A stretch of 63,831 nt of DNA, the filler included, from Folioceros fuciformis (Eukaryota): NCBI GenBank assembly GCA_049999805.1. It is 5 parts of 5 records of this genome, joined end to end, with 100 filler letters (N's around TTAATTAATTAA, not from the genome) between each part and the next. Parts side by side here need not be neighbours in the genome. Positions count along the whole stretch, not along the records: positions 62,771 to 63,831 come from JBNGIO010005143.1; 4 more parts are not named here. The stretch is one strand, 5' to 3'. The translations under genes and the position numbers were made by a program. Positions 12,455-63,831 of the stretch are shown here, piece by piece. Position 1 is the first letter of the stretch. The number at the start of each line of letters is the position of its first letter. The notes beneath the pieces were generated by a model. The model was not told the origin of the DNA. It worked only from the letters and a program-made list of their open reading frames with translations, and did not search any database.

Positions 12455-12480
12455 GATGCCTGTGAGTAAGAACCTCTGAT

Positions 12481-16664: not shown

Positions 16665-16764
16665 NNNNNNNNNNNNNNNNNNNNNNNNNNNNNNNNNNNN
16701 NNNNNNNNTTAATTAATTAANNNNNNNNNNNNNNNNNNNNNNNNNNNNNNNNNNNNNNNNNNNN
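16665..16764. other. Artificial contig linker (N44-TTAATTAATTAA-N44)
   Basis: Identical 100-bp structure four times; 12-mer gives stops in all frames. Confidence 0.98.
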
Positions 16765-38566: not shown

Positions 38567-38666
38567 NNNNNNNNNNNNNNNNNNNNNNNNNNNNNNNNNN
38601 NNNNNNNNNNTTAATTAATTAANNNNNNNNNNNNNNNNNNNNNNNNNNNNNNNNNNNNNNNNNNNN
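38567..38666. other. Artificial contig linker
   Basis: N44-TTAATTAATTAA-N44. Confidence 0.98.
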
Positions 38667-39791: not shown

Positions 39792-40060
39792 TGTGGTGGC
39801 AAAACCTCGAGCAGCTATTTACCAAAGGGTTCGACCTTTAGCATCCACACTTATCCCACTATTGTTGAGACATTGGGTTTCATTCCCACAAAGGAGCGAA
39901 GGGGTTTCTCGCTACGATCGATGGAGGGTCGGACTCAATCAACTTGATGACGGATTTGAGGGCTCTCCTCCAGCTCCAATCAGGCGTGGGACAGTCCTCA
40001 TTGTCCAGTGGTCGATTGCACGTCTCTTAATGCCCATAAATTCACTCCAACCACTACAAT
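39792..40060 (-). mobile_element. Diverged copy of the same Athila-like LTR (right boundary uncertain)
   Basis: TGTGGTGGCAAAACC...CCACACTTATCCCACT...CTCCAGCTCCAATCAGGCG homologous to 38346-38566. Confidence 0.75.
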
Positions 40061-42492: not shown

Positions 42493-43632
42493 TTAGCTTA
42501 GTTTTTGTTTTTTATGGCGTCGTCGTGTTGCGTTTGAAAATAAAGATGCCTCGTCTAACAAATATTGATGATATGCATCAATGTCTTTTATGTTTAAGAC
42601 GGTTTCATGACACATATCATCTAAATATATTTCTACTGGAAAATTTAAGATAATCTTATGTGGCCCACCTATGCTTGATCTTCGTGCGCCTTTGTGTCGT
42701 ATTCCACATAGATACATCTTAATTCTCATCTTATCCGATGCATAAGCCGCTTCTTTTGCATTTGGGTAACCGCCACAAAAGATTTGTTTGGAATCATTAA
42801 TTGATTTGTTTTTTACGTTTGGCTGTACACTTTGCTTGCAATGTCTTTTTAATAATGGACGACGTGAGGTAGATGCTTGACTAGGTTGAGATGAAGAACC
42901 TGCCTCATTAGTTGAATGAGCTGGACACCATACGTAACAATCAAACTTGCCAGTAATTTTATTCTTGGTAACTCCTTGATATTTTTCCTCATCGTTATTG
43001 AGGCTTTGTACGTATGCATACTTTGTTTCACACATCTCCCGCATGCATTCCAACACAAATTTTCTTATGCTAACCTGTTGGTCATGAATTGACCTAGTTG
43101 GCCTGATAGGTTTCAATTTTTCTATGCGTGTTCGACTTTGAATTCCTTTTGTAGTTCCTTCATATATAATTGGATTTGAAATCCTCTTACGTTTCACGGA
43201 TTCATCATCCACATCATTGTTTTCAACATCCATATCATCTTGTTCGCTATCCGTGAATTCATCATCCACATTATTAATTTCAGCATCCATATCATCTTCT
43301 TCGCTATCTGTGGATTCATCATCCACATCGATAAATTTTCCACGAATCAATGCATTTCTTATGCAAATGTCTGAATTTTTTAGCCACTCAGCATGTGAAA
43401 CACGAATTGTTGGCGGCAAGTTACTTGGTGCACCAAGTTGAAATTGGGGAGGAATTGCAACATGTATGAATTCTGATTCAGGTGGTGGTATATAATGAGT
43501 CCAAGCCTCCAGATGTTGTCGTGCTCGAGGTCTTGCTCGAAGTTGTCTTACTCGAGGTTGCTCTACGTTTGCGTTAGACACAGATGCATATGATCTGGAC
43601 CTTTTATTGTTTGATTCCTTGTCGTTTGCCAT
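42493..43632 (-). CDS. Intronless AP2-domain protein (single divergent euAP2/ANT-type repeat), ~379 aa
   Basis: KYQGVTKNKITGKFDCYVW...KQIFCGGY..AKEAAYASD...ILNFPVEIY parallels AP2 R1 YRGVTRHRWTGRYEAHLW..RQVYLGGYD..AARAYD..TNFP..Y; acidic repeats; C-terminal RRRHKKQK. Confidence 0.7.
   Translation of the reverse strand: MANDKESNNKRSRSYASVSNANVEQPRVRQLRARPRARQHLEAWTHYIPPPESEFIHVAIPPQFQLGAPSNLPPTIRVSHAEWLKNSDICIRNALIRGKFIDVDDESTDSEEDDMDAEINNVDDEFTDSEQDDMDVENNDVDDESVKRKRISNPIIYEGTTKGIQSRTRIEKLKPIRPTRSIHDQQVSIRKFVLECMREMCETKYAYVQSLNNDEEKYQGVTKNKITGKFDCYVWCPAHSTNEAGSSSQPSQASTSRRPLLKRHCKQSVQPNVKNKSINDSKQIFCGGYPNAKEAAYASDKMRIKMYLCGIRHKGARRSSIGGPHKIILNFPVEIYLDDMCHETVLNIKDIDAYHQYLLDEASLFSNATRRRHKKQKLS
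43200..43330. repeat. ~60-bp coding tandem repeat (DVDDESTDSEEDDMD unit, ~2.3 copies)
   Basis: TTCATCATCCACAT recurs at ~60-bp spacing. Confidence 0.8.
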
Positions 43633-44789
43633 ATTCCACCCTCTTTTCTTCAATTCTTTAAGCTTGGTCCTTCAAGTACACCTTTTTTCCAAATTCCTTG
43701 CAATCAAACACTTTGCACGCTTTGCTTTGTTGTGTCTTATGATACCTTATTGTTTGACCACCGCCCGTATATTTGTGGCTGATCTAACAAAGAAATGCTA
43801 AGCTAAGGACTCATAGAGTGGACAAAAAAACCGTAGCCAAGACCCATGAATAAAGACAACACATATATACTCCTCTCTTGCTTCATAGATTCAATGAGAT
43901 TCTGAAAGTTAGAGCTCATGTATTCACTTGGATGTCAACTTAATAACTACAATGCATAGGTTAGGTTACATACATGTATACAGAGGGGGACGTGATTTGG
44001 TAGTTACTAAAGATTGAAAAATATTCCATAATCAAACTTTAGCTATATCCTTTTTGGTAATACTTCTTTTAGCATATGGATCAATCAATGGTAACCAAAA
44101 TTTATGACAAAAAGTATTTTTTTACCTTTTTAGTAATACCTTCTTTTAGGTTGTGCCCTAACCAATCATTCATACTTATTTTTTTTGGTAGTCCCAAGCT
44201 GGTTCATGCGACTTTCCATGACGAGTAAAACTCCGTCCAAGACCCATTTAGGGTTACAATCCTTGAGCAGAACCCTTAGTTACGATCCTTACGGATTACT
44301 ATCAAACCTGGCCGCAGTCTAAATACCCGCAGTGTAGCCATAGGAAGAGCAGCATATGTGGTGCTGGCCACCGGTGCCTTGTAAATAATTGAAGTGGAAG
44401 GGTATCAGGCTTGCAGTACTGGTCTGCAGCACGGAGGAGACAGCAGGCGAAAAGCGAGCTGCCAGCTTGCCGCTTGCCACGCGTTGAGGTGGGTTCACGG
44501 CGACGATGCTGAAGAGTACGCTACGCCAGATGTTGCTCTACAAGTTTTTGTGCAGGCTTTTCTGCTTGCTCTCACAGTGCCAATCGCCTAAACCTCATGG
44601 GCAAATAAATGCGCCTGGCCGCTTGCTCACCGTACCACGCGTGTGCTAAAAATCCCGATGCACCCACCCGGCTGATGCCCGCTTCCTGAATCCCTTCCAC
44701 AGCGACCAAGCCTCTCGGAGTGGGTCCTCTGCTCACCGTCCGCACTGTTCCGTGCTCCTGTCCGTAATGCGTTAGCATTTCAACCCTGA

Positions 44790-44960
44790 GCACGGAGAGG
44801 AGCTTCATTAGGCGAGCTCACGTCTCTTCAGCACGGGGAGGAGCTCATCAGGAGGGCTCACGTCTCTTCAGCACGGGGAGGAGCTCATCAGGCGAGCTCA
44901 CGTCTCTTCAGCACGGGGAGGAGATCATTAGACGAGCTCACGCTAGCGTCTCCTCAGCAC
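44790..44960. repeat. 40-bp minisatellite, ~4 copies
   Basis: GCACGGGGAGGAGCTCATCAGGCGAGCTCACGTCTCTTCA head-to-tail with minor variants. Confidence 0.9.
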
Positions 44961-45470
44961 AAGCGCAGATTGGCCTGACACTTTGCAAGGATGTACCGAC
45001 GTACAGTACGTGAAAATTTCGGACTTGCTACATGATCCCATCAGTGGATGAACTATGGTTCTTTCTCACTCTACGCCGTTTCCGTTTGGAAGACTTACAA
45101 AGCCATAGTAAGAAAAGAAAAGCAGGGCGTGAGAGGACGGAGGAGAGCGACTCCCTGACCCTTTCATCAACACCACCCAAGGGTCTGGTCTGCTGCGGTG
45201 CTGAGGTTAGACCAAATCCCACTGCGCACAGCAGGCCTCGATCTGATCTGAACTTGGGCGCGGTCCAATCTCAATCTCTCTCAACTTGGACCCGGTCCAA
45301 GCTCCAACTCTCGCGTCCAATCCAACCTGCACCTATCAGCCGCGTCCAAGACGCTTGGCCCCAGTCTTGGAGGCGGGAGCTGAGCCCCGAGGCCCAGACC
45401 GGCCAAACATCAAATATTCGTAAAGATGGTTAACCCAAGATAGTGATGAAGGAAAGAGAGCCCCGTCTGA

Positions 45471-45540
45471 GGACATAGGGGATCATGGATGGCACTGGGC
45501 AGGACATAGGGGATCATGGATGGCACTGGGCAGGACATAG
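45471..45540. repeat. 31-bp tandem repeat, 2.3 copies
   Basis: GGACATAGGGGATCATGGATGGCACTGGGCA repeated exactly. Confidence 0.9.
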
Positions 45541-46758
45541 CCGTGGAGCCGAAGGGTTGGTCGCCTAGTGGAGAGAAAAAGAAGATGCCGGCCGCCTGGA
45601 TCGGGGTTTGTGCCCCACGAGCGGACGGTGAAGAGGATCGTCTATTTGCTGCTGATGAGGTTTAGGCGAGGGCCTCAGAACTGATGTAGAAGTAATTTTC
45701 GTGGACAGTACGCACTGTAGTTGGGGTGCGGGGACCCTGACACAAAAGGGCCCGTGGTGGTGGGGTAAGAGCAGAGGCCGATTTCCCAGGAAAGGGTGCA
45801 AGGAAGGAAGCGAGGGCGGCAGCAACGATATCGAAAGGCAGAGGCAGGCAAACAAGCAGGTTGGCTGGCTGACTCTAACAACGACGCGACTGACAGCAGT
45901 CAAGCGACACACCATCGACAAACCCGACAATTCCAAGCACAAGCACAGCACGCTAGACTACAACATCAGCACCTCAATTGATGGGGAAAAGGTCCAAAGA
46001 GGTGCAATAAAAAAGTGGGACAAATCCTATCGGCACCTGGAAACCAGTCATCCTTCCGGTCTGAGTTGTCATGTCTACGAACGCATGCCACGGGGAACAA
46101 CGTCGGCGTGTTGGCAGCAGATATTATTCCCATGCCTCAACTGCACATTTGCAACCAGTGACCAACCCGTAGGAAAACGTACTGCCAGTATGGCGTCGCG
46201 GCTGTCGCATCTCTTGTCCCTCACATTGCACCTGATCCTCGCACCACAGACAAGCGACCAGGACATCCTGGGAATGACGGGACCAAAAGCCAGCCTCTGA
46301 CGGACAATTCAACCTACTGATGACAAGCTGACGAGGCATGCCATGCCTCCCTCACACTTTGAATCTGTCCCATGATGCTCAAGCCACACACTGGGTATGA
46401 AGCATATTTCCAAGGCACGACGTACAGGCAGTCAATATACACACTCTTAACGGACTAGAGGACCAGAAGAGGAGAGGGCCTGTGAGCAACAAATACATAC
46501 TCCAAGGATGCAAACGACACAGCCCGCCGAATCTCCACCCACAAGTCTGGTTTGACGCGTCAATAAGGATCTCTAAATTGCGTCATACTCCCACTAATTA
46601 CCAACCTACCCTACACTAGTGACTAGCTTGAGCCCAGTAAGACCTGCAATTAAACGGCTCGCAGTGCCAATCTCCCGATGAAGAGGATGCGTTTCGTATA
46701 CATAAAGAACTGCAGACTACCGAGTTCAGAGATTATCTTGATTAGAGGCAAGCAGATA

Positions 46759-48410
46759 TTACACTTTCTGCCGCTTCGCAGCCTGCACAAATCCAGTAAG
46801 GACTTGCACCTCGTCCAGTTGCTGCACACCCCCGACATCGACAAGAGCTTGTGTTAGGATAAGAAGCCAAGGATGTTTGCATACAAGCCACACTCTTGGC
46901 AGAAACAACAACACAGGCCCTAGGTAGCTAAGAGCACTCACTTGTGACATGAAGTGCCGCCCAACGGCTCGAAGCAGTTGCTCTTTGGTGGAGTTAGGGC
47001 CTACATCTCCCTGGAAGAAACAACAGCACACGACAACGAGTGTGAGAGCGCCTACAGGCTCTTCACACCCCGCACACATAGCCATGCGCACTTGTGACGC
47101 AGAATGTGCTTACGAGTTTGAAATGTCTTCGATATCTCTTAAGTGCAGCCGTCTCCAGCTTGCTTAAATCAACGTGCTGTAAGGTTACGTCGTCACACGT
47201 TACTATTCGCTCAAGGCAAAGAATGTTGCACAACGCTGCAGGAAACGTTGCAAGTCAGGACAAGAAACGTGAAGTTTGAGGGCTACCGGAAGCGCGGCAG
47301 GCTTTGGTCTGGGAATGTCGTCCCCCTTCTTGTCCAACTGTTGCATTGGTGCAGCAGCTGATTCCTTGGCACTGGCATTCCCTAAACCAGGGGCAAGGCT
47401 TGTGCTGCCCGAACTTGACATCGTCGTGATGGTTGGTTTGCGAGGCCGGACTCTAGGCTTGAAAGACCTTGGAAAATCTTCATCGTCTGCGCAAAGTCGT
47501 GATTGTCAGCGTGAGTTAAGAATTTGCTTAGTGCAAGCATGCACGCAGCTCCCAATCAGAAATCGAGGGTAATGCATGCTTTTAAAACTCGAGTGGCTTT
47601 GATCAGGTGCTTCACAATGCTAACGGCAATATATGGTTGGAAACAAAACAACAAAATCATCCAGAGACGGAAATAGCAACCGACCTAGGCTTGCGGTGCT
47701 GGAGAAGGGATTGTCCACCTCGTCATCCTCGTGACCGGTGGGAGGTCCAATAACACTGAGAGCATTCCGCTGCAGTTTCACTTCGTCGCCGTTTGTGAGG
47801 ACCTGACAAAAAGACCATGAACAAAAGGAATGAGGCAAGTTGAAAGTTGAGGAAGAAAAAAATCATGAGCCGTCCGATCCCCTCTCGAAGTGTAACTGAC
47901 AAGAATCCCCTGTCGAAGGGGATTCTTGTCACTCACACTGCATTCGTTTACACTGAGCATACATCCACATGCCGAGCGGATGCTCGTTCAGAAGCCTCAT
48001 CCCGAGGAGCTTGAGTCCGGTTGCAAACAACTTGTGTGCTCCTGAGAACATGTCCTCCTCAAGATCAAGAAGCACAGATGTACAATCCAGAGGAAGGGAA
48101 GAGGCGTAGCAAATCGAGACAAGTGCGCGAAAGGCGTTGGCAGGAAGAATTATAGCAAGCAATGATATGCAAGAAACAAATAATCGGGAGACAAGGTTGT
48201 GTATCAGCACGCACTCACCAGCCAATGCCAGCCCCCAAGGCCAACAGCCTTCTTCACAACTCCATGCAGGCCTACCAAGACTGACTTGGTCCTGTTATTG
48301 CCGGTGACAAGAACTTTCGTGTGCCTTGGGAGCACGGAAAGCCCCTCGTCACCGATCTCCTCACAGCAGGGAGGAAAAAAGGCCGGCGGCCCTCCTTGCG
48401 TCTGCAGCAT
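46759..48410 (-). CDS. SAP30/Sin3-binding histone deacetylase complex subunit, AFR1/AFR2-like (234 aa, 6 exons: 48219-48410, 47685-47802, 47287-47486, 47114-47176, 46942-47010, 46759-46821)
   Basis: LSVLPRHTKVLVTGNNRTKSVLVGLHGVVKKAVGLGGWHWLVLTNGDEVKLQRNALSV and VDLSKLETAALKRYRRHFKL..KEQLLRAVGRHF; all introns GT-AG and in phase. Confidence 0.92.
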
Positions 48411-49058
48411 CACCTCCTTTGACTAAGAAACCAATGAGCGAAGAAGCCTGAATAGCGGCCAGTCCTGGCCTCCGGGATTGCCTACATTGGCCGATAATAA
48501 CACCGTCCCGCCAAAGACCCTGCCATACCATCCCTGGATTGGCACTTGCTGGAGGTGCACCAGATCTACAAATGCTTGCTCACGGACCGCGATTTCTCCC
48601 CCATTCACAGGGGCCAAGAAAAGCTTAGAAACGGCCAGGCCAGGCCAGGCCAGCCCCGAGCCGAGAAGAGAAAGAATGAAGCAGCGCACAGAGGGGGAAG
48701 GTTGGCACAGACGTGGTGTAGATGTCAACGTCTAGTGCGACAACAGATAAGGCATAGGCTGAATGGCAAGGAATCAAGAAGCAGGCGGAGACAGGGGAGG
48801 GCAATCGGAACCCGGCTTAGCAATGCACAGCAAGATTTGGCAACCAAGATTTGGGACATCGGTCGGAATCCGACGCAGGGGCTTGAGAGAGAAGGCCTGC
48901 GAACAACTCCAGTCCTCCAGCCACAAGCGCGAATTGCAAACTGCAGTGTCAAATTGGTGAGAGCCGGAATAAGAAGGTGCTAATTCCGTAAGAGGAATGC
49001 GAGAGAGAGGAGAGGAGACTGGAAGACGACTGCAACAAGAAAGCAGCAGCTCCAGCAC

Positions 49059-49158
49059 NNNNNNNNNNNNNNNNNNNNNNNNNNNNNNNNNNNNNNNNNN
49101 NNTTAATTAATTAANNNNNNNNNNNNNNNNNNNNNNNNNNNNNNNNNNNNNNNNNNNN
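49059..49158. other. Artificial contig linker
   Basis: N44-TTAATTAATTAA-N44. Confidence 0.98.
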
Positions 49159-49327
49159 TTCTGCAGATCCTGCAGTGCGAGGGCAGATCGAGCTGGTATG
49201 ACACTGGATTGATTTGTCGACAGACTCGATTAATGGGTCCGGTGAATCTGTAGACAAGATTGTGTCTCTGCTGTACCTGGGATGGATACCTGTGTGGCTT
49301 CATGTAGAGCCACACAAGGTGCTCCAC
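49159..49327 (-). pseudogene. Gypsy integrase C-terminal (GPF/SH3-like) fragment
   Basis: LVWLYMKPHRYP..NLVYRFTGP..INPVSYQLDLP. Confidence 0.6.
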
Positions 49328-49329
49328 AC

Positions 49330-49990
49330 TTGGGCAGAAAGCTGGGCTGGCTGTGAAGTACTAGCTGATGCTGAGGGGTTGGGTCATGATTTGTCTGCAT
49401 CTCACATGTTCTATCTGGCAAAAGCATGACAGTTGTCCCAGCATTATTGTTCTTCGTCCTGTTCTGGGCTTCCGAGACATTCGAAATTGAAGGGATGTCT
49501 GAAACCATGTATTGCCTATGGGCAATGGTGCTTGTAGTAGAGATGGGACTAAGCTGATTGTAGCGGCTCATCCAGGCCTGTGGGAGTTGGGATCATGTCC
49601 TCTAACCCCTGTTCTGTGGAATTGCGTGTACAAGGAAGTACTTAAAGCTTGCCCCAGAGATCTTAGCCTGATGGCAAAGGAGTGTGTTTTGGAAGCATGT
49701 TATTCCCACAGGGTGGTACATCAGGTGGCATCTATGTCGGTCAACAGCTCAGGAGTGGAACTCTTCCTTCAATTGTGATATTAACTCTTGACGTGCCTCT
49801 CTATGGACATGGTATGCCGATTTGTTCCAAGGCACTACCGTGTACGCCTGTCTTGGCAGCAAAAATTTGTAACCTTCGAGGCAATCCTGAAGGCCCCACC
49901 GGACACTTCTGCCTGAAGTGGTGGGAAGGTCGATGGCCAAGAAATTGAAGTAACTTAATCTGCTCTTCGTTCAGCAGGCACCCTCGACTG
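49330..49990 (+). pseudogene. Decayed duplicate of the 3' half (exons 6-9, with introns) of the ADP-ribose diphosphatase gene
   Basis: Colinear similarity to 56830-57490, e.g. GATGGGACTAAGCTGATTGTAGCGGCTCA and TTTGTAACCTTCGAGGCAATCCTG, with indels. Confidence 0.85.
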
Positions 49991-50013
49991 TCCTCACCAT
50001 GGCTCATAAACGT

Positions 50014-52129
50014 TCAAGGAAACGCCGGGGGAGGATCCCTGATTCCCAAAATCCCCTCCAGCGGGAAGACAACCTCAATCAGCGTGGCCTCGTTGCAAGG
50101 TTTCCCAAGGAAGGACACGCCGAACGGCAGGCCTGACGAGGGGTCGTAGCCTGCTGGGATAGTGAAAGTGGGAAATCCCCCAAACGAGGCTGGCACGTCG
50201 ATGCTGCTATCTGCCGGCGCTAGAAGCGCGTCCAACTGGTTGTCGCTGAACACTTGCACCAGCCCCTGCTGGTTCTGCCTCGCCACGATCTGCTGCGCCA
50301 GCAAGTACGCCTGGCTGGACTGCCCGGAAGTCAGGTTCTGCGCTGCGATGAACAGGTCGTCGGGGAACTTACTGAATTGCTGCCATCGCCAAGGGAGCCA
50401 TTCCAGTCAGTTGTTGGACAGGTTTTTCTCTGGACAGATGTGGAGGACTGGTGGTGTTGGAGAACCTACGTACCTCGCGGGGATCGGCTTGATCGAAGGC
50501 GATGATGTCCTCCAGCGTTGCGACGGGGCTCTTCTTCAGCGTGGCCAGATACTTGTTGATATTCACCTTGAAGTCGGATAGGAGCAGGAATTTGTCGGCG
50601 GTGAGTGGCGCAGTGAACGGTGCTACGCCATTGAAGATCTGTGTGAACACTGCGGGGTTGAGGATGGTGTTGTCGATGACTATCGCGCCGTGCTTGCTGC
50701 ACGAGGAAGGCGAGGTGTGAGTTCTCCAGAAGTGGTAGAGGCCGCAGCCTCGCATGTTCTGAGATCGCGTGCTGGAACCGGGGACGGAAGACGGCTTACA
50801 TGAGCACAGAGATGACGATTTCGAGGGCCGATATCTGGAAGTCGGGAAGGCCTTGGAAGAAGTCGCGCGCGATGCCGATGCGCTTGCCGACCAGCCCGTC
50901 GAGCAGCTTGTGCGCTTGGTATCCACCAGACGGCGGCTGGCAGCTGAATGCACTGCCAGGATCGGCTGGATCCGGCACCGCGATCACGTCCAGCAGCGCC
51001 ACGACGTCCTCCACGTACTTTCCGATGGGCCTGCGGTTTGATTTGTTCCAGAGCGTGAGATGTGGAGGAGCGTAACATTACCACCTTTCCGCATTCAGTC
51101 TTCGGTGCGATTGTTGCGTTACGATCAAGGAATATGCGAGGATCTATGGAGATTTGGAGATTGAGACGGGAACCGATCTGGAATGTCTGGAGACGCTTAC
51201 CCCGGCGAATCAACGCTGAAGGAGATGGGGACGATCCCAGTGCGGGAGGTGAGTCCCGGGGTCGGCTTGATGCTCGCTACGGCGTTCCTGCTGGCTGGCT
51301 CGGTGATGGAGCCTTGAGTCTCGGTGCCGATGGAGAGCAGCACCAAGTTGGCCGCGACGGCCACTGCCGGACCTGAGCTGCTGCCGCCGGGGTTCAGCGT
51401 GACGTTGTACGCATCCTGAAGAGGCAGATCACAGCGATTGCATTACAGAAGTTGAAGGTATTGGATCTGGAAGGAAGAGTGGAATGAATTCCAGGCTTTG
51501 CAAATTGCATGGCATGGTTGCCTACGTTAGTTTGGCCACCTCTAGGGCTGAACCCTTGCGGTTGTTGGAGGGAGCGGACGTGCAAGAACTCGCTGAGGTT
51601 GGCTTTGCCGAAGATGATGGCACCCGCGCGGCGCAGGAGCTTCACGATGAACGCCTCTGTGGTCACTTTGGAGCCGAGCAACGCAAAGGATCCTGCAGTG
51701 GTGTCCAGCTTGTCTGTGGTGCCGATATTGTCCTTGAGCAGAACCGGGACGCCGTGGAGGCCTCCAACGTGCCCCCCTGCTGCAACCCTGGCCGGACATA
51801 AAGAAAGGGCATCACGGTCTTGTCCCAGGCTATTTCTTACAGGAGCACCGTGAGATGCGTTGCGTCGTTATTCACCTTTCTTGATCGGCTTTCTTGGCCA
51901 AGTACAGGACATCCGGGTTGATTTCGATGATGGCGTTGAGCTGGGAGTTGTATTGCACCACGCGCTGGAGGTACAGGTTTACTAGCTGGACCGAGGTCAG
52001 GCTTCCTTCCCGGAATGCTAGCTGTACGTCCGAAATGGCGGCCTCGATTATCTCAAATCCCGAAGCAGAGGTGCCGAGTACGAGAGCTAACGCCACAAGA
52101 ACAAGCAAGAAGGCTTTCTTGTTCGCCAT
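50014..52129 (-). CDS. Secreted amidase-signature family protein A (516 aa, 6 exons: 51876-52129, 51526-51787, 51201-51415, 50800-51030, 50474-50696, 50014-50379)
   Basis: Signal-peptide-like N-terminus; [52 protein letters not shown] introns in phase. Confidence 0.92.
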
Positions 52130-52872
52130 TGAAAGAGCGAGAGAGGAACTTACTCCATTCGCTCCTGCGTCTCCAGAATTTATGGAAGGGATGGACGCGG
52201 CCAGTGCATTGTGGGAGGCAAGTTGGCCACACTTGTCCGAAGCCGGCACAACGCGTACAGCGCAGGCGGCTGCAGACAAAGACAAAGGCATGGGGATGAT
52301 AATCTTTCGAGAATATGTCCCTCAACGTGAGACAGAAATGCATGAGGCCTGCATTGCCTTCTATGGATTAGGACTCTGGGTTGCGAGTGCTGTTTCTGTG
52401 GAGAAAGATTAGCGGGCTGAATCTGGTCAGTGGGCAAAGATGCATAAGCCGAGGGCGCGCGCCAGCAGAAGCTCTCGAGCGAACGGCCAAGAGATACCGA
52501 GACAAGGTTCGGGACATGGATGCAGACAAACTACTCACACTAAACGACGCTAGAGCGATCAACAGTCCCCAAACCGGGGTAGCAGAACCCTGGATTAGCG
52601 CACTCTGAACACCTTGCTCACCAGGCACCCACTGGGGTTTGTGTTCCAGCCTAACTGCCAACAGCGCCGACTTGGAGGTGGATCATCCCCACCTGGACGG
52701 AATTTCTGTCGCAGAATGGAACTCATGAAAAACACCAATGTCCAACAAGGCCTACTGGCCCTGTTGGCTAATCAAACACCAAGGCCTACTGGCCTTTCGA
52801 TGTGCTGTAGATGTCCATGATATTCGTGATCGAGTGATGATCAAAGGTTTCGGCTCTGCCTGCAACAAGGAT

Positions 52873-54990
52873 TCAAGGAAACGCGGGGGCCGATTTCCTG
52901 ACCCCCAAAATACGTTCCAGTGGGAACACAATCTCAACCAGCTTGGCCTCGCTGCAAGGGTTCCCCAGGAAAGAAACCCCGAACGGCAGACCCGACGTGG
53001 GATTGTAGCCGGCCGGGATAGTGAAAGTGGGAAATCCCCCGAACGCGGCCGGCACACTTATGCTGCTGTCTGCCGGGGCCAGCAGCGCATCCAGCCCGTT
53101 GTCGCTGAACACCTTCACCAGCCCCTGCTGGTTCTGCCCCGCCACGATCTGCTGCGCCAGCAAGTACTCCTGGCTGGATTCACCCGAGGTCAGGTTCTGT
53201 GCAGCGATGAACACTTCGTCCGGGAACTTGCTAAATTGCTGCCATGACCAGACGCGGCGATTCGAGTTCTCCCTGATCAGTAGCTGGAAGACTGGGATGT
53301 CTCTTCCGGACAGAAATTGAAGGTGGTGCGGGGAACCCACCTCGCGGGGATCGGCTTGATCGAAGGCGATGATATCCTCGAGTGTAGCGACGCGGCTATC
53401 CTTCAGCGTGGCCAGATAGTTGTTGATGTTTACCTTGAAGTCGGAGAGGAGCACAAACTTGTCGGCGGTGAGCGGCGCCGGGAACGGCGGCGCGCCATTG
53501 AAGATGTCGCTTAAGACGTCGGGCTGGATGGTGGTGTTGTCGATGACGTTCGCACCGTGCTGGCTGAAACACAAACGTGCGAGGTGTGAGTGCTGGCGTA
53601 GCGGTAGAGACGTGGCCTCGTGGAGCGCAAGCACTGTGAGATCGAATCCCTGATGGCAAGACTTCTTACACCAAAGTGGAGACGACGTTGTCGAGAACTG
53701 CTTGCTTAAAGTCGGCAAGGCCTTGGAAGAAGTCACGCGCGATACCGATGCGCTTGCCGACCAGCCCGTTAAGCCGCTTGTGCGCCTGATATCCCCGCTT
53801 CGGCCGCTGGCAATGGTACGGGCTGCCAGGATCTCCTGGATCGCGGTGCGCGATGACGTCCAGCAACGCTACGACGTCTTCTACGTACTTCCCAATCGGC
53901 CTGCAGGTTGTTACAAAGATTGAAACCTTCTCACGGCGTTCTGGATTCAAACGACCTTTGAGCATTCAGTGCGACAGGTTTCAATCCAGGAACGTGTGAG
54001 AAGGCGTTTCAATCCAGGAGTGTGCCGAGACGCAATGGTTGGAGACGCTTACCCTGGCGTATCAGCGCCGAAGGAGATGGGGAGCATGCCGGCGCGGGAC
54101 GTGAGCCCCGGGGTCGGCTTGAGGCCCGCTACCGCATTCTTGCTGACTGGGTCAGTGATGGCGCCCTGCGTCTCGAAGCCGATGGACAAAAGCACCAAGT
54201 TGGCGGCGACGGCTACTGCCGAGCCTGAGCTGGTTCCGCCGGGGTTCAGCGTGACATTGTACGGATCCTGGAGAGGCAGATCACAGGAATACCAGAGTGT
54301 GGAGGCGGGGGATTATGGAAACAAGTTCGGTTGAGGAGTAGATGAAACTGCGCAATGCGTACATTGGTCTGGCCGCCTCTAGGGCTGAAGCCTTGTGGCT
54401 GCTGGAGGGAGCGGAGGTGATAGAACTCGCTGAGGTTGGCCTTGCCGAAAATGATGGCCCCGGCGCGGCGTAGGAGCTGGACGATGAAGGCGTCGCTGGT
54501 GACTTTGGAGCCGAGGAGCGCGAAAGATCCTGCCGTGGTGTTGAGCTTGTCTCTGGTATTGATGCTGTCCTTGAGGAGGACCGGGACGCCGTGGAGGCCT
54601 CCGATGTACCCGCCTGCTGCAGCCCTGGTGCATAGCATACATACGGGGAAGCACATTACATTCTCGTCCAAGGTCATTTCTTCCGCCCATCCTGAAAGCA
54701 TCGAGCAGCATACTGTAAGCGTTTGGCGCCAACCTTTCTCTGTCTGCTTTCTTCGCCCAGTGAAGGACATCGGGGTTGATCTCGATGATGGCGTTGAGCT
54801 GGGAATTGTACTTTTCCACTCGCTTGAGGTACAGCGTCACCAGCTGGACAGAGGTGAGTCTTCCCTCCCGGAAGGCCAGTTGCACGTCAGAGATAGTGGC
54901 CTCGATTATGTTGAATCCTGAAGCAGCGTTGCTAAGTGGGAGAACGAAACCCACGACGAAAGCCAGCATCAAGCCTTTCGCGCTCGCCAT
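52873..54990 (-). CDS. Amidase-signature family protein B, probable pseudo-enzyme (517 aa, 6 exons: 54734-54990, 54363-54624, 54053-54267, 53670-53900, 53341-53563, 52873-53238)
   Basis: Exons 2-6 identical in length to amidase A; open frame; signature reads PGGTSSG and GFETQGAI. Confidence 0.9.
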
Positions 54991-55757
54991 CGAAAGCGAG
55001 CCAGAGGAACCTCGCATCCACTCCTCCCTCTCTCCTTCCCATAGACCGAATGATTTATGGCAACCATCGGCTCTGACCGCGATCGTGTGACGTACGCACA
55101 CAGTGTACGTACAGTGAGAAAAGAAAAGAAAAACCGTGCCAGGTCACGAAGGACGGACGACCGTCATAGCAGGCGGTAGAGCTATGGATAGAAGAACTCA
55201 AGAGTCATAAAGTAGCTCCCTTTGGGATATTCTTGGCAGGAATCCGTCAAGTTTAGATATGTCTGGGTTCCAAGTGCGTGAATGTAGATATTTCCAGTAC
55301 TCAACTGGAAGCTGGGAACGTAAACGTGATTCTCGAAGAACGATCCGATGGCAGAGAGGAATGAGCCAGTGCTGAATTCATGTGCCATCCCCACAACCGG
55401 GCTCCTGCTCTACAACTTGCTAGTATGTGAGTTCTGCAGTTCAATGCCATGGGTGGCTCCTGAGGCTGAATTGAGTTTAGGGTTTAACAAGCGATAGAAG
55501 GCAGATTCCTGCGTAACGGATCGGAAAGGAATATCCAAGGGAACTGGATACGGAACTGGCCAGGGACTTTCTTTCCAGGTGCAATGTTGGGGGAAGAGAG
55601 TGAGAAGATCTCCTGGGACAGTCTTCCCTGGTTTCTCATGTGAGGTGTAATCCATATGTTTGCAAGCTGGCCATGAGTCTCGGGCGGTGAGACGTCAGTG
55701 CAATTCGTTATACGGAGCTGTTGGACAGGTAGAAGGAACAAGAGTGGAAAAAGAGGG
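54991..55757. promoter_or_regulatory. Short head-to-head intergenic region, candidate bidirectional promoter
   Basis: 767 bp between the divergent ATGs of amidase B and the diphosphatase gene; inferred from position only. Confidence 0.4.
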
Positions 55758-57502
55758 ATGGAGGATTCACCTTTATCTGCTGTTAAGAAGCCTCTGTTTT
55801 CTTTCGGCTTGATTGCCGACGTCCAGTATGCGGACAAAGAGAATGGAGGTATTTTCGTCTCTGTATGCACAGGCGATGGCCTTTCGAGCTGTACCGATGC
55901 TTTTGCTTGGTTCCTCCAATGAACTGTGGGCTGTTGGTGGTGTAGAGTACGAAGGACGTATTCAACGATACCGGGAAGCACCAGGGAAGCTGGAAACAGC
56001 CGTGACGGCATTCAATGCTTTGAAGCAAGACCTGCCGTAAGGACACGAGCAGGTTTCAATGCTGTATATGTTGAAACCGTGCTTTGAAGAAACCATCAGC
56101 CCGCGTACTGTCCTGCTTTCAGCTTGCAAGGGATAACCCTGGTTCATCGGTGATGTGACCTGGATGTTGTGCAGGTTTGTCCTGACATTGGGCGACATAA
56201 TCGACGGTAATACCACATCAGAGAAGAGTTTGGAGGATTTCAATGTTGTCCTGGACGCTCTCGCCAAAGTATGGGCGTTGGAAGGGCTTCTTTGGCTGTT
56301 GACAGCTCAAACAACATATGAGTGATACGCTAACATTGCATAGATTTGCAGCTTGAGGTCCCTGCGTATCATCTGCTTGGCAATCATTGTTTGGCATTGC
56401 CACGAGATGTCATGCTATCGAAGCTGGCCATGAAGAGCCGCTACTACCGAGCTGACATTGCACCAAACTGGGCTTTGGTATCTGAGTTCTCCTGCCTTCC
56501 TGGAATGTCAAGCCTTCTCCATCTAGACGCCTGATGAGTGTCAGAGTATAACTCCTCTGGTTTTGGTTATTGCAGGTTGTGCTGGACTCGATGGATGTAA
56601 GTGTAAGGTGGCCAGAAGACTCAGGTAACTACCAGGTCAGTACACCTGTCGCTGTTCACTGTAAGAGCTTATGCTACATCGTGTGGTGATCCAAACGAAG
56701 TCAAATCTTTAACTCAACCTCCTATTCCACTTGGTTTGTATTGATGCAGGAAGCAGTCAAGTATCTACAAGCTCACCCACTGAGCGATGCGTACCCCCAG
56801 TCTGCAGACTGGAATGGGGGGATTGGGGCAGAGCAGAAAGCTTGGCTGGCTGAAATAATAGCTGGTGCTGAGAGGTTGGTTCACGTTTGTCTTGATCTCA
56901 GATAGTCTGGTTGTCCAAGCATTATTGTTCTACGGCCTGTTCTGGGCTTCCCTGACTTCGAGCGTGGTCTGAAACCATGCATGTGCTATGGGCCATGGTG
57001 CTTGCAGAGATGGGACCAAGCTGATTGTAGCGGCTCACCACCCTGTGGGAGCGGGGTCATGTCCTCCAACCCATCTTCTGTGGAACCACGAAGAGGTTCT
57101 GAGAAACTGCATCAAAGAACTCGGCTTCGTAACAAAAGCGTGTTGTTTTGAGGCACCTTATTTCTAAACCTTACTGGCTGATCTCTCAGGTGGCATCTAT
57201 GTTGGTCAACAGCCCAGCAGTGAAGCTCTTTCTTTGTGGTACCAAATTCTTTTCTCAAATGCTTTACGGCAAGAACCAAGGCACTTCCCTGTTGACATGC
57301 TGCTTGCTCTCGTCTTCCAGGTCACTACCATGTAGGAGGCTATGCTTGTCTTAGCAGCACACATTTTGTAACCTTCGAGGCAATCCTGGAGGCACCACCA
57401 GACACCACAGCCTATGGCGTGGTCGATGTCCACGAAAGTGAAGTGATCATCAACGGCTTCGGCTCTGCCTCCAGTCGGCGCCTGCCACTGAAAGCACCTT
57501 GA
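55758..57502 (+). CDS. Mn-dependent ADP-ribose/CDP-alcohol diphosphatase (ADPRM-like metallophosphoesterase), 301 aa, 9 exons: 55758-55848, 55946-56036, 56175-56268, 56352-56477, 56576-56635, 56750-56874, 57008-57095, 57190-57238, 57321-57502
   Basis: FSFGLIADVQYAD, LGDIIDG, LGNHC, WNGGIG..QKAWL, AHHP, GHYHVGGY motifs; GT-AG introns in phase. Confidence 0.9.
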
Positions 57503-57519
57503 CCCACCAAACTTCAGCA

Positions 57520-57665
57520 ATGATTCCTGATCGATAAAATCCCTTCCCGGGGTGAAGTGAATCTCAAACACCGTTACCTCGCGGCAGCGTTTCCTCGTCA
57601 CAGACAATCCGAACGGCGGCCGGGATGGTGAAAGTGGGTAACCCGGCAAATGCGGCTGGCACGAA
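57520..57665 (-). pseudogene. Relic of an amidase last exon
   Basis: CCGAACGGC..GGCCGGGATGGTGAAAGTGGG..GCGGCTGGCAC matches 52895-53056 with a deletion. Confidence 0.7.
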
Positions 57666-57917
57666 AATCTAGCCGGCTAGGTGCACGGGACAAAGCAGGG
57701 ACACTGGAATCCTTTCTTGTCTGTTCGTCGGCAACTGTTTGATGGAAATGTAAGAAGGATGTTGCTATCTGGGAGATACACAAGACCGACACCGGGAAAG
57801 CACTTGGGAAAAAAAAGGAGCATCCTTCAGAAACAATGACTTTACGACTTGAACCTAACCCAGCAAGTAGATTATTTTTTATTATTCAAAGAGATATGGA
57901 AAGTTCTATCTTCTTTA

Positions 57918-58210
57918 AAGATTGGAGATCGAAAGATTGGAGATTAGAGGAATAACCTTTGGAGATTGAAAGATTGGAGATTGGAGGAATAATCGTTGGA
58001 GATTGAAAGATTGGAGATTGGAGGAATAATCATTGAAGATTGAAAGATTGGAGATCGGAGGAATAACGTGAGCAAGGCGAGGAGGAAACGATTGGAGATT
58101 GGAGGAGGAAAAGATTGGAGATTGGAGGAATAATCATTGGAGATGAAACATTGGAGATTGGAGGACCTAAGCAAGGTGAGGAGGAAAAGATTGGAGATTG
58201 GAGGAATAAC
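57918..58210. repeat. Degenerate purine-rich tandem repeat (GATTGGA/GATTGAAA/GGAGGAATAA units)
   Basis: Repeated AAAGATTGGAGATTGGAGGAATAA variants. Confidence 0.85.
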
Positions 58211-58599
58211 CCGAGCAACGCCAAGAGGAATAACAAGAGTTCACACATCACATCATTCTAAACAATTACTACGGCTCCCGAAATACTATAATGTGCAATA
58301 ACAAAATGTCATGATGTGGAAAAACAAAAGGCTACTCATGCATGGGTCTTAATCCTCATATATGTGCAGCATTATTCCATGATAAGGGGCATACATAGGA
58401 GCTTAAGCGGGCAATTTATTGATCGTGTTTGGGTATAGAACTTGAATAAGACAAATATGCATGCAGGTAAGGAAGGGTTACTTATCATGCTCGGTTCTCA
58501 TGGTAGTCATGATGTGTTACAACTAATGTGAAACAATCCTTGACATATGTAGCATGTGCAATGACATATGTAGCATGTGGAAATGTCCATAGAGCGTAC

Positions 58600-58915
58600 C
58601 TACTAAACATGTATATTTTCAAAAGAGTTGTGAACAGATTATATATCGCAAAGCCTAATGCGGCTTATCTAGAAAGATGAAGACATCAATTGCAGGCAAA
58701 ACAATGCTTCTATAACCCATGAGATATTTCTTGAGTGGCTTCAACACTTTTAAAAATATCTTGCTACACATAAAAGGAGTAAAGTAACACATATCCTTGG
58801 ACAGTGCCAACTATTGTCAGCAAATGGAGCTCATTATACTCTACATGCCTAGTCATGTACTTCAATCTTTTGATGTTGTTGTCTTCAAGCCCTTCAAGCC
58901 CTTCAAGAAAGCTTT
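58600..58915 (+). pseudogene. Possible pogo/DDE_1 transposase relic
   Basis: ITHEIFLEWLQHF and SHVLQSFDVVVFKPFK resemble DDE_1 motifs (F..WL.HF; SH.LQPLDV..F.PFK). Confidence 0.5.
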
Positions 58916-59019
58916 GCGAAGGAGGAGTACCTTTCGGTAATGGGAACATCGGGAGATTGTTGGGAACCCTACCCTTCCCCTCCCTCCCGCCTTTTCATCT
59001 TTTTTGGGGAAGTCTTGCC

Positions 59020-59600
59020 TATTGATCTTGCACCCCTCTCGCTTGTTGATCCACATGCCGATCTCCCCTGTCACACTCCGCCTTGCCCGCATGTTGATTT
59101 GCCCTCCGCCTATTGATCGGCTTGCCTATGAGCTCTCCCCTATCTGCTTACCGATAAGCTCTCCACTTGTTGATCCACTTGTCGATCACCTCTGTGCTTG
59201 TTGATTCGCCAATCAATCCGCTTGCCGATCACTTGTTGATCTGCTTGTTGATTCACTTGTCGATCACTTGTTGATCGACTTGTCGATCACTTGTTGATCC
59301 ATTTGTCGAGCACTTGTTGATCCACCTGTCGATCACCTCTCCACCTATTGATTTGCCTGTTGATCACCTCTTCGCTTGTTGATATGCATGACGATCACCC
59401 ACACCTATGGACGATCTCTTTGCCCGTTGATCCACATGACAATCACCTTTGCACTTGTTGATCCGCATGACAATCACCCGTTGATCCACATGACAATAAC
59501 CCGTTGATCCACATGACAATCACCTCTGCACTTGTTGATCCGCATGACGATCACCCTCGTTGCTAATGTGCCCCCAACCCCCCTCCCCGCTTGTTGATCT
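59020..59600. repeat. Degenerate minisatellite (TGTTGATCCAC(TTGTCGATCAC/ATGACAATCAC) units)
   Basis: GTTGATC core recurs more than a dozen times. Confidence 0.85.
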
Positions 59601-61226
59601 CTTTACCCCCAAGGTTGGGAATAAGAGGGAAGTGAGCGGGATTGAGGTTAGAGTGAGAGTAGGTGGAGGAGAAGGGGAGCATAGGGGCAAGATTCCCAAC
59701 GGGAAAGGGGCATACTCAAATTCTAGGGAAGGGGAGGGAAAAGGGAGGCGATGGTATAGAATTTGGCCAGAATTATTCCAGCTCAATCAGCTTCAATGAC
59801 CAACTCTTGCAAGATCTACTCCCACAATATTCACCCTTAGGTGTAGAGTCCATAATCTGCCTATTAATGTACACTCCAACTAAGAACTTGAGACCGGTAT
59901 AAATACACTCTTTGGCATTCATATCTTAGCACTAGCTTTTATGCGCAAAAACTAGTTTTGAACCCAACCTAGCGAATTGCTTACCTATTGCTTGTTGGAT
60001 TCCTTTGTGTGGAATGAACCATAGTAGCAAGGTAGCTTACACATGTAGCAAAAGCTGTATTCAACTAGGAAGGTCCATGTGAACTCCAACAAGGACAAAT
60101 CTTGGCAAAATGTGGCTTAGAGAAGAGCGTAAACAAAGAAGACACTCGATGATTGACATCTTGTTCAAAATTGATGCTTGTGTTTTGGGTGATATTGAAG
60201 TCAATGCGAATTTGTGCAAGGTTTTTAAACCCATGCATGGCTGACAATTTGGATGCATAGTTCAACCCTTTTGTGTGGTTTTGATACATACTCTCGTAGA
60301 CTGAGGTTATGCGAGACTGAGGTTATGCCCTCAATTGTGGATGACGAAACACAGATATGTTGGGAGTTTATGTTAGACCTAGGTTATGCCCTAGTTTCTG
60401 GATGGTGAAATAAATATGGTGGATATGCCCTAGTTTCTAGATGGTGAAATAAATATGGTGGAAAACAAGGAGCCCACACGGTTTTATGTAAAGAGAGTGA
60501 AAAGAAGAGAGGGTAGGGCATGCCATGACACATGGAAAGTCACATGTGTGAAGCATTAGTTGCTTAAGAAATTGAGATGCAGGAAAAGGGATATGATCTC
60601 TCATGCTACATATACCCTCTCATATATATGAATGAACGGCCTAAATAAAATTAAGAATATTATCATGAACTTCATTTTTATAGCCTGTACCAAGTACACA
60701 AACAGGGAACGGGGTATGATCTGCCGGCCCGTTGACCCGTTGGCTCGGACACAAAAGTTATGATGTGTATGTCGGTGATGGCCGCATCGGGAAGCCCTCG
60801 CCGGAGAGGATGGGATTCCCGACGCGGAGTCATCAATCGCATCAATCACTGCTCTCATCATCGGGATGCCCGATGCGGTGATGGTTGTGAAGGTGAAATA
60901 TATGGACCGGAACCCTAAAATTTATTATCACCTGGGTGTTCGGGATGTCTATGTTCAGCTGACATGCGACACGTCCGGTAGTTAAAGTTAACGATTGGTT
61001 CGGCGGGTAGCGCGGGAATGTCTAGAAGAGGATGTTGGGGGAATGGTGGCAACTGCCCACCGCCTCCAGCACCATGGATTCACCTTCGGCGGGTGGAGCA
61101 GGAGGAGCAGCAGGGGCAAGTGACATTGCAAGAAATCGGAGGACACAGCGGTGCTCTCTGCACCACAGGCAGCAGCACCGATATTGGAGCCCGATGAGAG
61201 CGGGTGATTGATGGAACTGCGAGGTC

Positions 61227-62670
61227 ATGGACATGCCCCTCCGGCTGCTGCTGCTCCGCGTGGTGGTGCTGGCGGCAGGCCTGAGCCTAGCAGGCCCCGG
61301 GCTCTGCCATGACGTGAAATTCACGTACTTCCCTAGGGACCAGGGCAAGGGCTACTGCTCCGTCTACTGCGCCTCCGCCACCAACTGCACCGGCAACGAG
61401 GGGTGCAAGATCGACGACGCCACCCGGGACCCCGCCCTCAGCCTCATCCCCTTCGGCATCGGCAACAACCGCGACATCGCCGTGCGCTTCATGCGCGACG
61501 CGGCAGTGCAGCTGTGGGACAAGGACTCGGGGGCCAACGCCTCCGTGCAAACCTTCTTCGTGCTGCGGGTGTCGGGTGTGGTGGGCTACGCTACCGGGGA
61601 TGGCATGACCTTCCTCATGGCGCCCGAGATATCAGTCCCCACGGGCTCCCAGGGCGGGAACCTGGGCCTATTCCCCACCGACCCTGACGGGAACCCCCTC
61701 CCCGGCTCCGACCCCCAGACTCTGGCCATCAAATTCGACACCCACAACAACACCAAGTTCGGGGATCCCTCGGCCCCCTACGTCGGGCTGGCTGTCAACA
61801 CGCTCAGAACCGATGCCTTCGCGGAACTGGACGATGATCTCATCCCGCAGATAGACTTCCTGCACAACAAGTTCGGGGTGTGGGTGGACTACGACGCTCC
61901 CTCCCAGAACCTGCAGGTGGCAATCCTGCTGTGGCCGGAGTTCGGAGGCTTTGATGCCGCCAACGCCCTCAAGAAGAGCGCCAGGGTGGCATTCAACTAC
62001 TCCCTGGACCTGAGGCAGACGCTGGGGTCGTGGTCCTACGTCGGCTTCTCCGCCAGCACCGGCCATGACTTCGAGATCAACGAGATCTTCTACTGGACCT
62101 TCGTTACCACCGGGCTCGGGAGCAAGAAGAAGGCCATACCGACTTGGCTCGAAGCCTGCCTCATCGCCGCCGCGGGGCTGCTGCTGCTGCTGCTCGTTTT
62201 CTGCCTGCCATGGTGCCGCAGATGCTGCTCCTGCCGCCGGCACAAAAAGAAGCGCAAGTCCCTTCTTCCTTCCGTCATGCTAGGGGAGGCTCTGCTGCGT
62301 ATGGCGGCGGCCAGGGGCGGATCAGCATCCGCCCCGCTCGCCCACACGAAGCAGCCGAACTACGCCCGGCCTACGGGCGGGAGCATCCGGAGAGCCCGAC
62401 CCCAGCAGCTTCTAGGGTTACAAGGCGGTCACTCTGCTGCTGCTGCTGATGCGGCGGCGGCGAGGCAGTACCGGGATGTCAGAGCTCCCCCCATTGATGT
62501 GTCTGTCGAGGAGGATGCCGGTGACGAGCAACACGACGCTCGAGCAGCGAGCCCTAGCAAGAGCAAGAGAAACCAGTGGCTCGGCTTCTTTCTTCCTGCC
62601 GACAGTGCTGGTGCTGGGGGTTCTCGATTGGAGGAGCAGAGGAATGCGTCCGTATCATCCAGAAGCGGGA
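61227..62670 (+). CDS. Legume (L-type) lectin receptor-like membrane protein, 3'-partial
   Basis: Signal peptide; ASVQTFF, GDGMTFLMAP, GGNLGLF, LAIKFDT, VWVDYD, YVGFSASTG, IFYWTF; TM ACLIAAAGLLLLLLVFCL; runs into the gap. Confidence 0.85.
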
Positions 62671-62770
62671 NNNNNNNNNNNNNNNNNNNNNNNNNNNNNN
62701 NNNNNNNNNNNNNNTTAATTAATTAANNNNNNNNNNNNNNNNNNNNNNNNNNNNNNNNNNNNNNNNNNNN
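62671..62770. other. Artificial contig linker
   Basis: N44-TTAATTAATTAA-N44. Confidence 0.98.
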
Positions 62771-63831
62771 AGCTATGACCATGTCGATGGGGCCCAAGGC
62801 TTGGATGTGGCCCTGCTGTATATACTGGACGTCCTGAGGTAAGGACGTGAATGTATTAGCCAGAGCCTCAGCTGACAGTTGTTGTGGGAAACGATGTTGT
62901 AGACCCTGCAACCGAAATGCAGCAATTTGCCTGGCAACGAGGTCTTTGTCACAGTAAAGGTACCTTTGAATGCTCAAACCTGTCAAGAGAAAAGCTTCTA
63001 ACCCGGTACAAATACCACCAAACAGTTCAACGACTGTAAGGGCTAGCGCAGCCGGTGCCCATATGATGACAGTATTGTCCACATAAGATGTGGGACAAGA
63101 TGATAGAGTCCCGGCTTCCAACAATTGTTGCATCTTGCTGACCTGCTCTTGTGCCTTGGTCAGCAATGCCTCTGCCTGCTTTGGACAGTCAGGCTGAATT
63201 AGAGCTTGCTGCAAACTAGTACACCTCACTTGGGCCTCTGCAACATTGGTCTCTAGATGCTTGTCCACTTGGTATGTGTCTTGGACAAGCTCCACCACAT
63301 TGCTACTTTTGATACCAACTACAGCCGGGATTTTCACCAAAGTGGCTACATCAACCTCCACCTGGCCATGCAAATCTAATGGCAGATGTGCAATGCGACG
63401 ACCTCCTTGCTTCCAGTCAGGCCTATAGAAGGCTTGCTCAGTCCAGTTATCCACACCAACTCCTGGTGGAAAGAGGAACTCTTGCCCCAACAGCAAATCA
63501 TAGTTGGTGGCTGTGGTTACCAGGCAGGGCAAGGACAATGTCATGGCATCTGGCGTGCCCGAGTTCAAGGTGATGTCCAGGGGTTGGACTGTCTCACCAC
63601 AGACTCGTTCAATAGCCACGGATGCCGTCCTGATGTTCCAAGGCGAGGTATGCAATGCATCACCCTGAAGATGCAACCTTGCAGCTAGAATCTTCCCAAC
63701 GAGTACTGGTTGGGCTCCCGTGTCTAGCAACACCACTCTGGGTGCATACCCATTGATTGTGACGTGCCCACAACGATTGTCAACAACTGCATTGCTGACA
63801 CGAGCTTGCAGTCGATTGGTGGACTGCACTC
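62771..63831 (-). mobile_element. Retrotransposon polyprotein fragment: aspartic protease fused in frame to the N-terminal part of a C5-cytosine DNA methyltransferase
   Basis: Open frame >350 codons; VLLDTGAQ and YDLLLGQEFL (retropepsin); TVVELFGGICTGLEA (motif I), YLYCDKD (II), LPQDV (III), GPIDMVIA (lead-in to motif IV). Confidence 0.8.

Follow-up and report, generated by a model that had tools for sequence, protein, structure and literature searches.

Plants silence transposons mainly by cytosine methylation, which makes a transposon with a de novo methyltransferase of its own a striking exception. The literature that we searched describes a single streptophyte case, in Klebsormidium nitens (KnitGypsy-Dnmt3; de Mendoza et al. 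2018, PMC5890265), where a Dnmt3-type DNA methyltransferase (DNMT) lies inside the polyprotein (Pol) of a Gypsy-order element. Here we analyse a stretch of 63,831 nucleotides filed under Folioceros fuciformis (assembly GCA_049999805.1), called the window below, whose last contig, at positions 62771-63831, consists wholly of a piece of the same type: a retropepsin (protease, PR), a linker and the start of a Dnmt3-like methyltransferase are encoded in one frame, as in complete Gypsy-order elements elsewhere. The piece is very probably a fragment of the polyprotein gene of a long terminal repeat (LTR)-type retrotransposon with the Ty3/Gypsy order, of the 'Gypsy-DNMT3' kind. This kind is already known, and the window adds a new, truncated member to it; the wider distribution reported below is drawn from relatives of the piece and not from the window, as are the three domain orders, the PHD finger and the Glu-Cys motif.

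How close is the piece to the Klebsormidium element? The preliminary description of this DNA had named Klebsormidium as a precedent, and the comparison bears this out: the K. nitens Gypsy-DNMT3 protein GAQ93235.1 (P0038), which combines a zinc knuckle (zf-CCHC), a protease and the C5 cytosine methyltransferase domain PF00145, aligns in one stretch with residues 23-353 of the piece (E 1e-17) and has the same PR-linker-DNMT order. Relatives of the piece also share with KnitGypsy-Dnmt3 a layout of split direct repeats, A-coding-B-A-B, which is given in the legend to Fig. 4c of PMC5890265. The differences lie in the identity of 25%, in the separate clade that the Klebsormidium protein occupies in our tree, and in motif IV of the methyltransferase, where it retains proline (FPCQG) whereas the nearest relatives of the window and a sister copy have ECQG. 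Relatives of the piece have, in addition, a PHD finger on the integrase, and the term 'PHD' is absent from the main text of PMC5890265, its supplement aside.

The closest named relatives are proteins of the liverwort Calypogeia fissa (CAM6094570.1, CAM6104163.1 and CAM6125022.1), with protease and PF00145 in one protein. CAM6094570.1 (P0230), encoded on a 20.9-Mb record, aligns with residues 15-353 of the piece (E 2e-72). These proteins, together with a number of metagenome loci, make up the sister clade of the window, but they belong to a different host and the identity is only 37%. Our literature search found no paper describing the Calypogeia fissa PR-DNMT proteins. A search for DNMT-carrying retrotransposons in land plants or bryophytes returned only the 2018 paper and passing mentions, and supplements may list more; two recent papers mention 'streptophytes' only, referring to the 2018 work.

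Other described systems are further removed. The cellular enzymes DNMT3A and DNMT3B, as well as plant DRM, have the same fold and, in the part present here, the same order of motifs, and DNMT3A is our best match in both structure and profile searches. In contrast to DNMT3A and DNMT3B, however, the module in the window is fused to a retropepsin, intronless, multi-copy and devoid of PWWP, ADD or other host companion domains, and its relatives have glutamate for proline in motif IV. In Symbiodiniaceae, SymbioDIRS-Dnmt3 and SymbioLINE-Dnmt are also retrotransposon-borne DNMTs, those of the DIRS elements being of Dnmt3 type and flanked by split repeats, but they ride on a tyrosine recombinase or long interspersed element (LINE) backbone instead of PR plus DDE integrase, and PMC5890265 considers them an independent acquisition. 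Finally, DAM-LTR and EpiLTR (bioRxiv 10.64898/2026.05.21.726589) are Ty3/Gypsy-like elements with DNA methyltransferase modules, as here; in their case the modules are a DAM (adenine) methyltransferase and, together with chromodomains, a cytosine methyltransferase related to DNMT4, and the preprint states that they are distinct from the streptophyte Gypsy-DNMT3.

The protease-methyltransferase frame

The contig holds an open frame of 353 codons on the minus strand (P0001, 62771-63829), a retrotransposon polyprotein fragment that is stop-free and open at both ends; at this composition, a stop-free run of this length has a chance of about 4e-8. Along this frame, LLDTGA lies at 63713-63730, YDLLLG at 63485-63502 and VELFGGICTGLEA at about 62993-63034, after which YLYCD, PQDV and PIDMVIA follow in order, the last ending at 62771. 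The preliminary description had reported a single stop-free frame with these motifs at about these coordinates, and this was confirmed. The frame stops at 62771 because the contig ends there, just before motif IV of the methyltransferase and within the strand that precedes it; upstream, it is cut by the end of the window. It had further been claimed that a gap cuts the frame exactly where the catalytic motif should follow. The place is right, since 10 of 11 relatives in our alignment A1 continue after the residues aligned with the IDMVIA strand with G-W/F-x-C; the 'gap', however, is an artificial spacer between two contigs. Two of these 10 gene models stop at G-W/F-x-C, and the longer relatives proceed to Q-G-x-S, then to a Y..ENV block, AHR.R..WTN and EPTA.ERERAMGF.

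The retropepsin occupies residues 23-119 (63473-63763, minus strand), with the catalytic D-T-G in LLDTGA and with YDLLLG further on. Pfam families PF13975 (E 1.2e-6, 29.4 bits for a cut-off of 28.2) and PF13650 (E 2.8e-6) both match the fragment. In an AlphaFold model based on alignment A1, the mean predicted local distance difference test score (pLDDT) is 59.6, with 56-84 in the protease blocks and 65-93 in the C-terminal part. In a Foldseek search with this model the best matches were the retropepsin domain (RVP) of Ddi1 and retroviral proteases (E 5e-6), and the matches listed for the Protein Data Bank (PDB) comprised proteases only, with no methyltransferase among them. VIA-align likewise matched model residues 13-125 to proteases, with Z from 9.6 to 9.1. 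The identification of the N-terminal domain as a retropepsin thus holds on three counts: a Pfam match above the cut-off, a protease fold and the presence of DTG. It is followed by a linker (about residues 160-255, 63065-63352, minus strand) with two predicted helices, variable among relatives; pLDDT is mostly below 50 at residues 117-246, and no fold can be claimed for the linker.

Residues 261-353 (62771-63049, minus strand) match the N-terminal part of a Dnmt3-like C5 cytosine methyltransferase, with motif I, YLYCD, PQDV and the IDMVIA strand. Motif I corresponds to F270-G276 (63002-63022, minus strand), where ELFGGICTG aligns with the motif I region of DNMT3A. The model of this part has a beta-alpha-beta-alpha layout, and among 48,161 chains compared with VIA-align, residues 261-353 matched human DNMT3A (9lq1_A, residues 632-706) with a Z of 9.1 and a root-mean-square deviation of 2.0 Å over 75 superposed residues, at 33% identity; generic Rossmann and methyltransferase folds ranked below it, with Z of at most 7.6. 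A sequence search of the PDB gave eight weak matches (E ~2), all eight to DNMT3A at motif I (residues 264-294), and in the ESM Atlas the leads to PF00145 clusters all stayed below threshold (score 0.85). When a profile was built from seven relatives, the query excluded, DNMT3A, DNMT3C and DNMT3B came first (2.1e-17 to ~1e-12), followed at lower ranks by tobacco and Arabidopsis DRM and then by M.HhaI and M.HaeIII. Sequence and model together thus identify the C-terminal ~90 residues as the predicted S-adenosylmethionine (SAM)-binding start of a Dnmt3-type C5 methyltransferase. That C5 methyltransferase motifs follow the protease had already been proposed, and both the DNMT3A structure match and the DNMT3-first family profile agree with it.

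Relatives, domain orders and copies

Among 1.84 billion representative proteins, we found 596 relatives at E<=1e-3, 166 at E<=1e-10 and 9 at E<=1e-30. A word-based protein search with the DNMT part returned no match, which is weak evidence, as another scan found long relatives. Separate scans of relatives for PF00145 gave matches in 4 of 7, 6 of 10, 1 of 3 and 4 of 10 proteins; in the scan with six matches, the four proteins without a match terminate at motif IV or upstream of it. In one further scan, PF00145 was present in seven of seven relatives at E<=0.01, five of them above the cut-off.

The relatives fall into several domain orders. One protein, P0131, reads zf-CCHC-PR-DNMT, reverse transcriptase (RT, RVT_1), RNaseH and integrase from end to end. 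In the metagenome locus L014, the protease is followed by one stop, then by DNMT, RT and RNaseH in one frame, and then by an integrase with a PHD finger. These full-length relatives have the order PR-DNMT-RT-RNaseH-integrase, in agreement with the earlier proposal of a Gypsy-type element with its DNMT between protease and reverse transcriptase. In P0077 (Closterium sp. NIES-54) the order is integrase-RVT_2-DNMT, that of Copia elements, while P0080 (Chlamydomonas eustigma) has RNaseH-DNMT-integrase and several long proteins have RT-RNaseH-DNMT-integrase-PHD. The PHD finger (PF00628, E 1e-8 to 1e-10) ends the integrase of many relatives, including L014 (13853-15010), P0040, P0054, P0069 and P0041.

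A pattern scan of Joint Genome Institute (JGI) metagenome contigs yielded 207 stretches encoding relatives, of which 80 loci were kept (29-38% identity). Among the 45 loci with at least 3 kb of downstream sequence, 34 have YxDD within 4.5 kb downstream. Split direct repeats of the form A-coding-B-A-B are present in 7 of 15 loci examined (L014, L027, L042, L043, L045, L050 and L076, of which L043 and L045 are possibly one sequence filed twice) and absent from the other eight. In L014 the boundaries are repeat A at 6389-6680 and B-A-B at 15060-15713. The elements that these repeats surround carry a DDE integrase. A PPR-E-DYW gene adjoins the L014 element (17979-19367). We take the PPR-DYW gene type to be characteristic of land plants, and this neighbour suggests a land-plant origin for the related metagenome contigs.

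A quick maximum-likelihood tree was computed from the region that runs from the protease through to the start of the DNMT, both included. Its 37 rows comprise the window, 16 of the 80 loci and 20 of 25 candidate proteins (the five with partial coverage were left out). In this unrooted tree, the window is sister to a fully supported clade of Calypogeia proteins and metagenome loci, with a support of 90 in the Shimodaira-Hasegawa-like approximate likelihood ratio test (SH-aLRT), and the Klebsormidium protein falls outside this grouping. Long branches make the deeper nodes unsafe.

The stretch is also contained in four sequencing runs from three studies under one organism label. In one of them, X1, a contig of 9251 letters spans the whole stretch with 16 differences and extends 4393 letters beyond 62771 and 3797 beyond 63831. 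Two others, X2 and X3, have 31 and 34 contigs that match the stretch at identities ranging from >=99% to <90%, with contig depths of about 200-340 for the main version and 7-25 for diverged versions; depth is not a copy number here. Several diverged copies and the longer X1 contig mean that the element is repeated and exists in a longer form. In one diverged contig, hand translation past 62771 gives G, a stop and E-C-Q-G-F-S, that is, motif IV; the stop sits where relatives have tryptophan, two residues before the cysteine. The window copy is young relative to the near-identical copy, from which it differs by 1.5%. The earlier view that this is not a single-copy host gene is therefore upheld by the many diverged copies in the runs of the organism, while the linkage to RT and integrase that was part of it is seen in relatives only.

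The retrotransposon reading and its rivals

What would the complete element look like, and how might it work? Judging from its relatives, it would comprise gag with a zinc knuckle, PR, DNMT, RT, RNase H and integrase, often with a C-terminal PHD finger, and would be bounded by split direct repeats in the A-coding-B-A-B arrangement. The element's protease would cleave the polyprotein to which it belongs. Produced alongside the reverse transcriptase, the Dnmt3-like module may then methylate cytosines of the element's complementary DNA (cDNA) or of a newly inserted copy, so that the new copy would bear a host-like CG methylation mark and would not be treated as foreign. Methylation of the cDNA or of the new insertion is the hypothesis put forward in the Discussion of PMC5890265 for elements whose cDNA is made ahead of insertion. 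In relatives, the integrase may use its PHD finger to read histone tails and so steer insertion.

Several observations weigh against identifying the piece as a fragment of such an element. Motifs IV-X, the reverse transcriptase, the integrase and the repeats of the window copy lie outside the window, and tblastn with the fragment as query revealed no further copy elsewhere in the window (six other matches, E >=2.2). PF00145 does not match the fragment at E<=10; the fragment spans roughly the first 60 of the 324 positions of the profile, about its first fifth. The Pfam check proposed at the outset thus came out in two halves: the retropepsin families match the fragment and PF00145 does not, although it does match those relatives that run on. 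The PR-DNMT region is stop-free in only 3 of the 80 loci, and most of those copies are therefore dead. The 16 differences from the X1 contig comprise eight synonymous and eight non-synonymous changes, which indicates at most weak constraint, and at no fewer than three of the non-synonymous sites the window copy departs from the residue common to relatives, so that it may be decaying. Lastly, no run among those containing the stretch is on record as RNA, although one is guessed to be RNA.

The remaining points against this reading concern catalysis, and they are shared by the alternative that survives best: the DNMT module could be a pseudo-enzyme or act on another substrate, binding DNA, RNA or SAM or methylating RNA, with no methylation of DNA. 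The first point is the residue before the catalytic cysteine. To our knowledge, Pro-Cys is close to universal in C5 methyltransferases. In the relatives of the piece motif IV is mostly GWECQG: among 85 motif IV matches in 230 proteins, a set that includes near-duplicate cluster members, this residue is glutamate in 62, proline in 18, serine in 4 and leucine in 1 (the single leucine match being probably spurious), and in the related loci it is glutamate in 23, aspartate in 2 and proline in none, with no match in 51 of 76. Glutamate is also found in the closest relatives of the window. We saw no mention of this glutamate-for-proline change in the main text of PMC5890265, supplement aside. The second point is that the DNMT of KnitGypsy-Dnmt3 gave no methylation in yeast (PMC5890265), in the one assay of a KnitGypsy DNMT that has been published.

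Are these observations compatible with an active DNA methyltransferase? The relatives retain the catalytic cysteine, the ENV/ENT motif, an RxR-type motif and the C-terminal ERERAMGF block, which argues against loss of catalysis. The yeast experiment was called inconclusive in PMC5890265 because human DNMT3B failed as well, and the same paper reports purifying selection on the DNMT of the K. nitens copies. We consider a pseudo-enzyme or a switch of substrate unlikely on balance, but the change of proline to glutamate beside the catalytic cysteine poses a concrete biochemical question.

A second alternative accepts a DNMT-carrying retrotransposon and gives it another domain order, either the Copia order seen in Closterium (integrase-RT-DNMT) or the RT-RNaseH-DNMT-integrase-PHD order seen in Chlamydomonas eustigma, in place of PR-DNMT-RT. 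Both orders do occur among relatives of the DNMT part (P0077, P0080, P0040, P0054, P0069, P0041 and P0081). In the window, however, the DNMT comes directly after the protease, which is the PR-DNMT-RT order, and the tree joins the piece (SH-aLRT 90) to the clade of Calypogeia and metagenome sequences, one member of which, L014, has PR-DNMT-RT. Another order is thus very improbable. We give equally little credence to contamination, or to an origin of the contig in an associated organism such as a symbiotic alga: the piece is indeed a short contig end, joined to the others by an artificial spacer only, but runs from three studies with the same organism label contain many copies of it, and the window's remaining contigs are likewise rich in transposons and of plant type. 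A domesticated or chimeric host gene, that is, a host DNMT3 with an acquired protease-like N-terminus that is no longer mobile, has nothing in its favour beyond the visibility of a fragment only and can practically be set aside in view of the multiple diverged copies, the lack of introns and the occurrence of the same fusion inside complete elements of relatives.

Neighbouring contigs and wider meaning

The Gypsy-DNMT3 fragment is the last of five contigs in the window, at 1-16664, 16765-38566, 38667-49058, 49159-62670 and 62771-63831. They are joined by artificial 100-base spacers, each made of the word TTAATTAATTAA with 44 N on either side, at 16665-16764, 38567-38666, 49059-49158 and 62671-62770; this spacer word occurs four times in the window as against none expected in 100 shuffles. 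The spacers are not biological gaps, and linkage across the four of them is not to be assumed. The gene nearest to the fragment in the window is accordingly unlinked to it, because an artificial spacer lies between the two contigs. This intronless gene, truncated where its contig ends, encodes an L-type lectin-domain protein (61227-62670, plus strand) that has a hydrophobic stretch and begins with a signal-like sequence. A single relative was found for the lectin protein, a Zingiber lectin receptor kinase (27% identity).

The other contigs contain conventional elements. A nearly intact Copia element lies at 25092-29129 on the minus strand, in two directly adjoining frames; frame 1 (26682-29129) encodes gag, a Pol beta-barrel, gag-pre-integrase, integrase and SH3, and frame 2 (25092-26681) encodes RVT_2 (E 2.7e-76). 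Also on the minus strand, a Gypsy-type element without a DNMT (18535-22092) has Retrotrans_gag, a zinc knuckle, an aspartyl protease and the start of RVT_1, and the distance from protease to RT is only ~240 residues. Two frames matching Amidase (51394-51867 and 54246-54836, minus strand) both cover PF01425 positions ~38-110 with E ~1e-17, and could represent either a duplicated exon or amidase genes in tandem. An Rfam scan of the window gave no match, and blastn of the window against the 80 related metagenome loci revealed no DNA similarity at E<=1e-10. The amidase exons, the L-type lectin and the plant-type Copia and Gypsy elements on these contigs are consistent with a host from the green lineage, probably a streptophyte.

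Taken alone, the window adds little beyond a new member cut off at a contig end. It is possible, though we hold this tentatively, that it stems from a lineage of Dnmt3-carrying Gypsy elements that is young, perhaps still active, and sister to a bryophyte clade, and whose host lies outside the protein collections that we searched. The window fragment and its relatives indicate that such elements occur widely among green algae and that one land plant at least, a liverwort, has them too: members were found in Klebsormidium, Closterium, Chlamydomonas eustigma and Calypogeia fissa as well as on land-plant-like metagenome contigs. This wider distribution offers more tractable hosts in which the role of a transposon methyltransferase can be tested. 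If our reading is true, transposon-borne Dnmt3 would not be an oddity of Klebsormidium but an old superfamily of the green lineage with survivors among land plants. It would comprise three domain orders and an integrase ending in a PHD finger, and its conserved Glu-Cys in place of Pro-Cys might point to an altered chemistry or substrate.

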